DNA of 64,000 nucleotides from Escherichia coli (GTDB lineage: Bacteria; Pseudomonadota; Gammaproteobacteria; Enterobacterales; Enterobacteriaceae): assembly GCF_009931435.1 (NCBI RefSeq), contig NZ_CP043414.1. One strand, given 5' to 3'. Position numbers and translations under genes: made by a program. Below the pieces are notes generated by a model, which saw only the letters and a program-made list of their open reading frames with translations, was not told the origin of the DNA and made no database searches. Below are positions 1,879 to 6,231 of this stretch, piece by piece (positions within the stretch are counted from its first letter, which is position 1; each line of letters begins with the position of its first letter).

Positions 1879-1887
1879 TCTGTAAAT

Positions 1888-1938
1888 ATTATTTAGCCGT
1901 AGTAATCACTCGCCGTAATTATTACGGCTAAATAAACA
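1888..1938 (+). terminator. Near-perfect 16-bp-arm palindrome right after the ampG stop; likely transcript-end hairpin
   Basis: atttagccgtagtaat ... attattacggctaaat inverted repeat read in the sequence; no clear T-run follows. Confidence 0.45.
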
Positions 1939-2337
1939 TCAGCATCGCTTATTAATATTTGTTCTTTTGTGCGGCTTAGCGTCTGGAAATTATTGACGCC
2001 ATTTATGAATTCTATTTTTCTTACACGATTCAGCTAATGAGTCTTTATTTTCTCACTACCCAGTTGTCACCTTAATGATAATTATTTGTTAAATAATTGT
2101 TTTATTTTGTATTGGTTATACCAATTGCCCGCCCAAACTCCTTCTGCACTCCCCTTTCGTTATAACGCCCTTTTGCAACAGCTTCTTAAAATCAACTTGA
2201 TATGTTTTGCAACATATGTGACCTAATAGCCAAATCCAAGTAACAGGAATTTAATCATGTTTACAGTAATGTAACCTTCCCGTAAAATGCCCACACACTT
2301 TAAACGCCACCAGATCCCGTGGAATTGAGGTCGTTAA

Positions 2338-3285
<948 letters not shown>

Positions 3286-3294
3286 AGGGGTTGA

Positions 3295-6231
<2,937 letters not shown>

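Follow-up and report, generated by a model that had tools for sequence, protein, structure and literature searches.

The window, by which we mean the whole 64,000-nt stretch of Escherichia coli DNA analysed here, carries ampG and the beginning of the cyo operon on either side of a long spacer. The open reading frame at 403-1878 encodes AmpG (NCBIfam equivalog, E 2.7e-295) and that at 2338-3285 encodes CyoA (NCBIfam equivalog, E 2.3e-206); cyoB comes next after cyoA, from position 3307. The interval 1939-2337 corresponds to the ampG-cyoA gap without the hairpin that follows ampG. A preliminary description of this DNA had reported about 400 bp of AT-rich sequence between ampG and cyoA, and this was confirmed. 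G+C content was 36.1% in 1939-2337 and 35.5% in the whole gap, compared with 50.8% in the window and 52.6% in the two flanking genes, and just 1.2% of 399-bp segments across the 64 kb were equally AT-rich. Within 50 kb of the K-12 neighbourhood, the 459-bp gap was the longest among approximately 42 intergenic gaps, with the runner-up at 406 bp. The elements located in the spacer are listed in Table 1.

The hairpin downstream of ampG had a folding energy of -24.5 kcal/mol (z -5.7), and none of 200 shuffled sequences was equally stable. Its inner palindrome, CCGTAATTATTACGG, was conserved at the DNA level. A scan of the region for canonical intrinsic terminators found none. The hairpin is probably the 3' end of the ampG transcript or a stabiliser of it.

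Table 1. Features of the ampG-cyoA spacer in window coordinates; negative numbers are relative to the cyoA start site.
Feature	Position	Strand	Description
ampG-cyoA intergenic region	1879-2337		459 bp, 35.5% G+C
ampG 3' hairpin	1889-1934	+	18-bp stem; no U-tract on either strand; starts 11 nt past the ampG stop
Cra (FruR)-type box, GCTGAATCGTGTAA	2021-2034	-	1 mismatch to RSTGAAWCSNTHHW (13 defined positions); -274 to -261
Distal ArcA-P site, 'cyoA3'	2064-2106	+	Four direct repeats 11 bp apart; -231 to -189
Fur-like sequence	2071-2089	+	13/19 to GATAATGATAATCATTATC; overlaps the distal ArcA site
PdhR box, AATTGGTataACCAATa	2110-2126	-	13/14 to AATTGGTnnnACCAATT; -185 to -169
Conserved block, TTTCGTTATAACG	2156-2168		-139 to -127; contains the palindrome CGTTATAACG
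CRP-like site, TGTGACCTAATAGCCA	2217-2232	+	Centred at -70.5; left half well conserved, right half weak
Proximal ArcA-P site, 'cyoA1'	2257-2288	-	Three direct repeats over -35/-10; -38 to -7
Sigma-70 promoter cyoAp	2260-2288	+	-35 TTTACA 2260-2265; 17-bp spacer; -10 TAAAAT 2283-2288
Transcription start site (A)	2295	+	K-12 TSS-seq position mapped onto the window
5' leader	2295-2337	+	43 nt; hairpin CCAC 2307-2310 / GTGG 2319-2322; Shine-Dalgarno GAGG 2327-2330

The cyoA promoter, start site and leader

TTTACA-17-TAAAAT was the sole promoter-like match within 1800-2450, agreeing with the consensus at 10 of 12 positions, and its -10 hexamer ends 7 nt from the start site. In K-12, TSS-seq assigned 245 reads to a cyoA start at U00096.2 450877, which gives a leader of 43 nt (Kim 2012). 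The 51-nt sequence upstream of this K-12 start was identical to window positions 2245-2295, which places +1 at 2295. The K-12 coordinates of Park 2013 imply the same +1, and in Klebsiella pneumoniae the cyoA start falls at the homologous base (Kim 2012). A sigma-70 ChIP peak was reported in K-12 at 450871, with a value of 2629 in aerobic and 49 in anaerobic culture (Myers 2013); this aerobic-specific peak lies at the position homologous to cyoAp. Comparison with the mapped cyo promoter, a check proposed in the preliminary description, found the K-12 start site and both promoter hexamers intact in the window.

In nearly all of the Enterobacterales loci sampled, including those of Serratia, Pectobacterium and Photorhabdus, the distance from the -10 context CGTAAAATGCC to the ATG was 53-59 nt; it was 70 nt in two loci whose leader is longer. 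The leader was nearly invariant in Enterobacteriaceae and showed no substitutions relative to K-12. In Erwiniaceae and Yersiniaceae, the leader stem CCAC/GTGG was exchanged for GACAA/TTGTC. Both sides of the stem had changed in two of five pairs, and 78% of cells were paired compared with 62% in shuffles; these compensatory changes are essentially one evolutionary event. The leader hairpin could be a site of post-transcriptional control.

ArcA sites

Three ArcA ChIP-seq regions have been reported upstream of cyo in K-12, where deletion of arcA led to a 65-fold derepression of the operon (Park 2013). That study predicted ArcA sites in two of these regions, 'cyoA1' at -38 to -7 and 'cyoA3' at -231 to -189, and no box in the middle region, 'cyoA2'; the strongest peak lay over 'cyoA3'. 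The box-bearing sites of both regions were intact in the window. Boxes were scored with an 18-bp matrix built from 113 published boxes (Park 2013), both cyo boxes being excluded. The highest scores in the 64 kb, 19.0 bits at 2075-2092 and 18.2 bits at 2086-2103, both fell in the distal site, whose repeats lie at -229, -218, -207 and -196, a spacing of exactly 11 bp. With the same independent matrix the proximal site scored 13.3 bits; its sequence was the same in K-12, and column identity in Enterobacteriaceae was approximately 94%. Two sites could thus be located for ArcA, whose control of cyo the preliminary description had stated and left unplaced.

The gap contained 6.5 boxes of at least 12 bits per kb, compared with 0.06 per kb in the rest of the window. 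A box of this strength, as far from the ATG as the distal site is, was found in most Enterobacteriaceae and in many Erwiniaceae. Half-sites showed a mild enrichment, with 40 in the spacer compared with 31.5 ± 4.9 in composition-matched shuffles (approximately 1.8 SD), and AT-richness accounts for most of the single-repeat ArcA matches. As a yardstick for the ArcA regulon we used at least two TGTTA-type direct repeats 11 bp apart and a score above the published mean of approximately 15 bits; a repeat box of the kind that marks direct ArcA-P targets was present in the cyoA spacer.

This arrangement is similar to that of icdA, sdhC and the three-site cydAB region (PMC3798270), which also carry TGTTA-type direct repeats 11 bp apart. 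Promoters of this type and cyo are alike in having one ArcA site over the core promoter and several ArcA-bound regions per spacer. In contrast to these promoters, the strongest ArcA site of cyo lies approximately 200 bp upstream of the start, where it adjoins the PdhR operator, and no box could be recognised in the middle ChIP region.

PdhR and Cra boxes

The preliminary description had mentioned 'other factors' acting at cyo. Two regulators that it did not name, PdhR and Cra, were found to have clear boxes in the spacer.

No other site like the PdhR box occurred in the 64 kb. Its GGTnnnACC core was intact, with no change relative to K-12, and the box is the one recovered for cyoA by genomic SELEX (PMC7660256 Table 1). 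It was kept in most Enterobacteriaceae, the exceptions being the loci of Klebsiella oxytoca, K. indica and a small number of others. The box that characterises the PdhR regulon was thus found at cyoA. The GntR-type palindrome AATTGGTnnnACCAATT is shared with the operators of pdhR-aceEF-lpd and ndh; at cyoA the box lies 169-185 bp above the single start site that has been mapped.

Matches as good as the Cra-type box numbered 13 in the 128 kb scanned. Columns 2024-2034 were approximately 99% identical in 34 Enterobacteriaceae, and nearly all Enterobacteriaceae loci carried a Cra-type box with zero or one mismatch at a fixed distance. The spacer thus contains a Cra-type box with a single mismatch, and Cra has been reported to regulate cyoABCDE (PMC5888115). 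We infer that Cra may act at this putative box.

CRP, Fur and other regulators

Scans for CRP and Fur sites, also suggested in the preliminary description, did return matches, and these were weak. The CRP-like site agreed with TGTGAnnnnnnTCACA at 7 of 10 positions, which is chance level by score alone. Class I CRP sites were taken as TGTGAnnnnnnTCACA centred near -61.5, -71.5 or -82.5. The TGTGAC half-site was almost invariant in Enterobacteriaceae, and in species with an 11-bp insert the CRP-like site was found one helical turn further upstream. Genomic SELEX for CRP did not have cyoA among the recovered targets; a CRP ChIP-exo supplement lists cyoABCDE, without interpretable site information. 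The TGTGAC half-site centred at -70.5 could plausibly serve CRP as a class I site.

The Fur-like sequence (13/19) scored no better than chance; 28 sites across the window matched the consensus equally well, and published studies disagree on Fur binding at cyoA. In consensus scans of the spacer, sites for HprR, CusR, GadE, OxyR, NsrR, IscR and NarL matched poorly or no better than chance. The published YedW/HprR site has been reported inside the operon rather than in the ampG-cyoA spacer. Two MarA/SoxS-type boxes with two mismatches each were seen; MarA was rejected because a cyoA control fragment was unbound by MarA in vitro.

FNR dependence

FNR had likewise been listed in the preliminary description as a regulator of cyo. 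The dependence of expression stands, as cyoABCDE expression is FNR-dependent across several datasets; a direct site is improbable. One ChIP-chip peak-finding algorithm, CMARRT, called an FNR peak near U00096.2 451133 (approximately window position 2039), which would be consistent with direct repression of cyoABCDE by FNR bound in the spacer. However, this peak was found by none of three ChIP-seq peak callers and has no reported matrix site. The best match to the FNR box TTGATnnnnATCAA in the spacer was 7/10, a score that 702 other sites in the window reach and that is at chance level; no box of the kind expected at an FNR target was found in the spacer. In Table S13 of Myers 2013, cyoABCDE is ArcA-regulated and shows an FNR-dependent change in expression, yet has no FNR ChIP-seq peak. 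Direct repression by FNR is therefore improbable. The lack of both an FNR box and a published FNR ChIP-seq peak suggests that FNR control of cyo is probably indirect, through ArcA.

Conservation of the spacer

A scan for CyoA relatives covered 80 Enterobacterales and Aeromonas loci, 75 of which had ampG upstream of cyoA. In these 75 loci the gap was mostly 390-680 bp long with 32-46% G+C, and its G+C content was 5-22 points (mostly 13-20) below that of its own flanking genes. Photorhabdus and a related MAG (L071-L075, L081) had an ampG-cyoA gap of approximately 1350-1425 bp, with an insertion between the genes.

Alignment of 34 Enterobacteriaceae gaps gave a mean column identity of 62%, with conservation concentrated in islands. 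Column identity was 94% in the promoter and leader (2257-2334) and 94% in the PdhR core. The Cra core ACGATTCAGC was near 100% identical, and the ArcA repeats TGTTAAAT and TTGT also formed islands near 100%. Further conserved islands were TGTGAC, GTAACA and TTTCGTTATAACG. Alignment-independent motif searches gave the same picture.

The K-12 spacer (NC_000913.3 451611-452069) shares its flanking genes and its 459-bp length with the window, as well as the start site, the -35 and -10 hexamers, the ArcA sites, the PdhR box core and the Cra-type box. The two sequences differ at 19 single bases (4.1%) and are identical from -67 to the start codon. The last 110 bp were free of differences, as were the Cra box, the PdhR core and the strong ArcA repeats. 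Sites were touched by four differences: the weakest repeat of the distal ArcA site had two, and a base that flanks the PdhR box and position 2158 in the conserved block had one each.

Escherichia, Citrobacter and Salmonella were without one 11-12-bp 'CTGACAC' unit that is common to most other Enterobacteriaceae. The indel sits between the -35 hexamer and the TGTGAC block (window approximately 2228-2256; compare L006, L008 and L018). The distance from the PdhR box to the ATG was 227 nt without the unit and 238-239 nt with it. Absence of the unit therefore brings all upstream operators one helical turn closer to the promoter, and helical phase is kept.

A small RNA, riboswitch or small protein gene hidden in the spacer beyond the promoter could be proposed from its unusual length, from a 46-codon open reading frame at 2086-2226 and from the extreme conservation of a leader with a small, compensated hairpin. 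This is very improbable. The open reading frame has no family match, runs to 62 codons in K-12 and is not conserved, and the longest open reading frames in the gaps of relatives lie at other positions and in other frames. Rfam gave no family match at E ≤ 1 (1700-2600, both strands), and the leader fold was no more stable than that of shuffled sequence. RefSeq gives ampG and cyoA as the flanks of the gap and no annotation between them, both in K-12 and in the closest genome, and the K-12 TSS table of Kim 2012 has the cyoA start alone between its entries for cyoB and ampG. Foreign or degenerate DNA outside the core promoter, such as a mobile-element remnant or an H-NS-silenced stretch, would agree with a G+C content 15 points under the window mean and with the many matches to generic AT-rich consensus patterns of IHF, Fis and Lrp, but is effectively excluded by the gene order, spacer length and AT-richness conserved over 75 Enterobacterales loci, by discrete conserved islands that coincide with known operators, and by the near-universal presence of the spacer in E. 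coli (an 801-bp segment spanning the gap matched in 5424 of 5426 complete genomes at 97-99% identity, one copy per genome).

Regulation of cyoABCDE from the spacer

We conclude, with a probability of approximately 0.95, that the spacer is the cis-regulatory region of cyoABCDE, the cytochrome bo3 ubiquinol oxidase operon, in this E. coli strain. The preliminary description had read it as a cyoA control region, and this reading is supported by its collinearity with the K-12 spacer and by the mapped cyoA start site and promoter that it holds. The control region is already known, being the K-12 cyoAp region with strain-level substitutions. The cyo control region of this strain is intact and canonical, and regulation of the aerobic oxidase should therefore match that in K-12. 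What we add is a map of the sites in window coordinates, which may be useful to annotators, the correction on FNR and some small loose ends.

The locus identity, promoter, start site, and ArcA and PdhR sites are established by the present analysis or by the cited K-12 data. A single sigma-70 promoter would direct transcription from 2295 with a 43-nt leader, and operators for metabolic regulators would occupy approximately 280 bp upstream. With the quinone pool in its reduced state, phosphorylated ArcA would bind both the three-repeat site over the -35 and -10 hexamers and the four-repeat site at -231 to -189. Bound at -38 to -7, ArcA-P would be expected to block RNA polymerase. A third ArcA region, without a box, would lie near -123, between the proximal and distal sites. 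PdhR would bind its near-perfect palindrome next to the distal ArcA site; pyruvate releases PdhR. CRP may act as a class I activator from -70.5.

The distal ArcA and PdhR sites, 170-230 bp above the only mapped start, are unusually far upstream for simple repression. Looping, oligomerisation or a second promoter are candidate modes of action for these sites. The distal cluster of ArcA, PdhR and Cra sites may act from approximately 170-275 bp upstream, possibly by oligomerisation or by looping to the proximal site. In a more specific form of this model, the Cra box, the four ArcA repeats and the PdhR box (-274 to -169) would form a single helically phased repression complex, looped or oligomerised, with the proximal ArcA site. 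Such a complex would fit three observations: the site clusters are separated by exactly one 11-12-bp 'CTGACAC' unit more in some Enterobacteriaceae than in others, the box-less ArcA ChIP region adjoins the conserved TTYGTTATAACG block, and the leader hairpin, which could add post-transcriptional control, is kept by compensatory changes. We consider it a tentative and rather unlikely arrangement, and the literature checked contained no description of a phased repression complex or of leader control for cyo.

Conserved elements of the central and upstream spacer

With the spacer read as the cyoABCDE control region, the conserved block at 2156-2168, the phase-preserving indel and the leader hairpin offer small leads for respiratory gene regulation. 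Most Enterobacteriaceae loci, among them those of Escherichia, Citrobacter, Salmonella, Enterobacter and Kluyvera, carried the block with zero to two mismatches and at a constant distance. It lies approximately 10 bp from the centre of the box-less ArcA ChIP peak 'cyoA2'. In K-12 the base at 2158 is T, which creates the ArcA half-site-like TTGTTAT within the block.

Between this block and TGTGAC, a direct repeat, TTTTGCAACA, was seen at 2171-2180 and 2204-2213. The two copies are 33 bp, or three helical turns, apart, and the reverse complement TGTTGC is a common variant of the ArcA half-site. Upstream of the Cra box, moderately conserved blocks were observed at 1957-1973 (ATTTGTTCTTTTGTGCG) and 1985-1996 (GGAAATTATTG).
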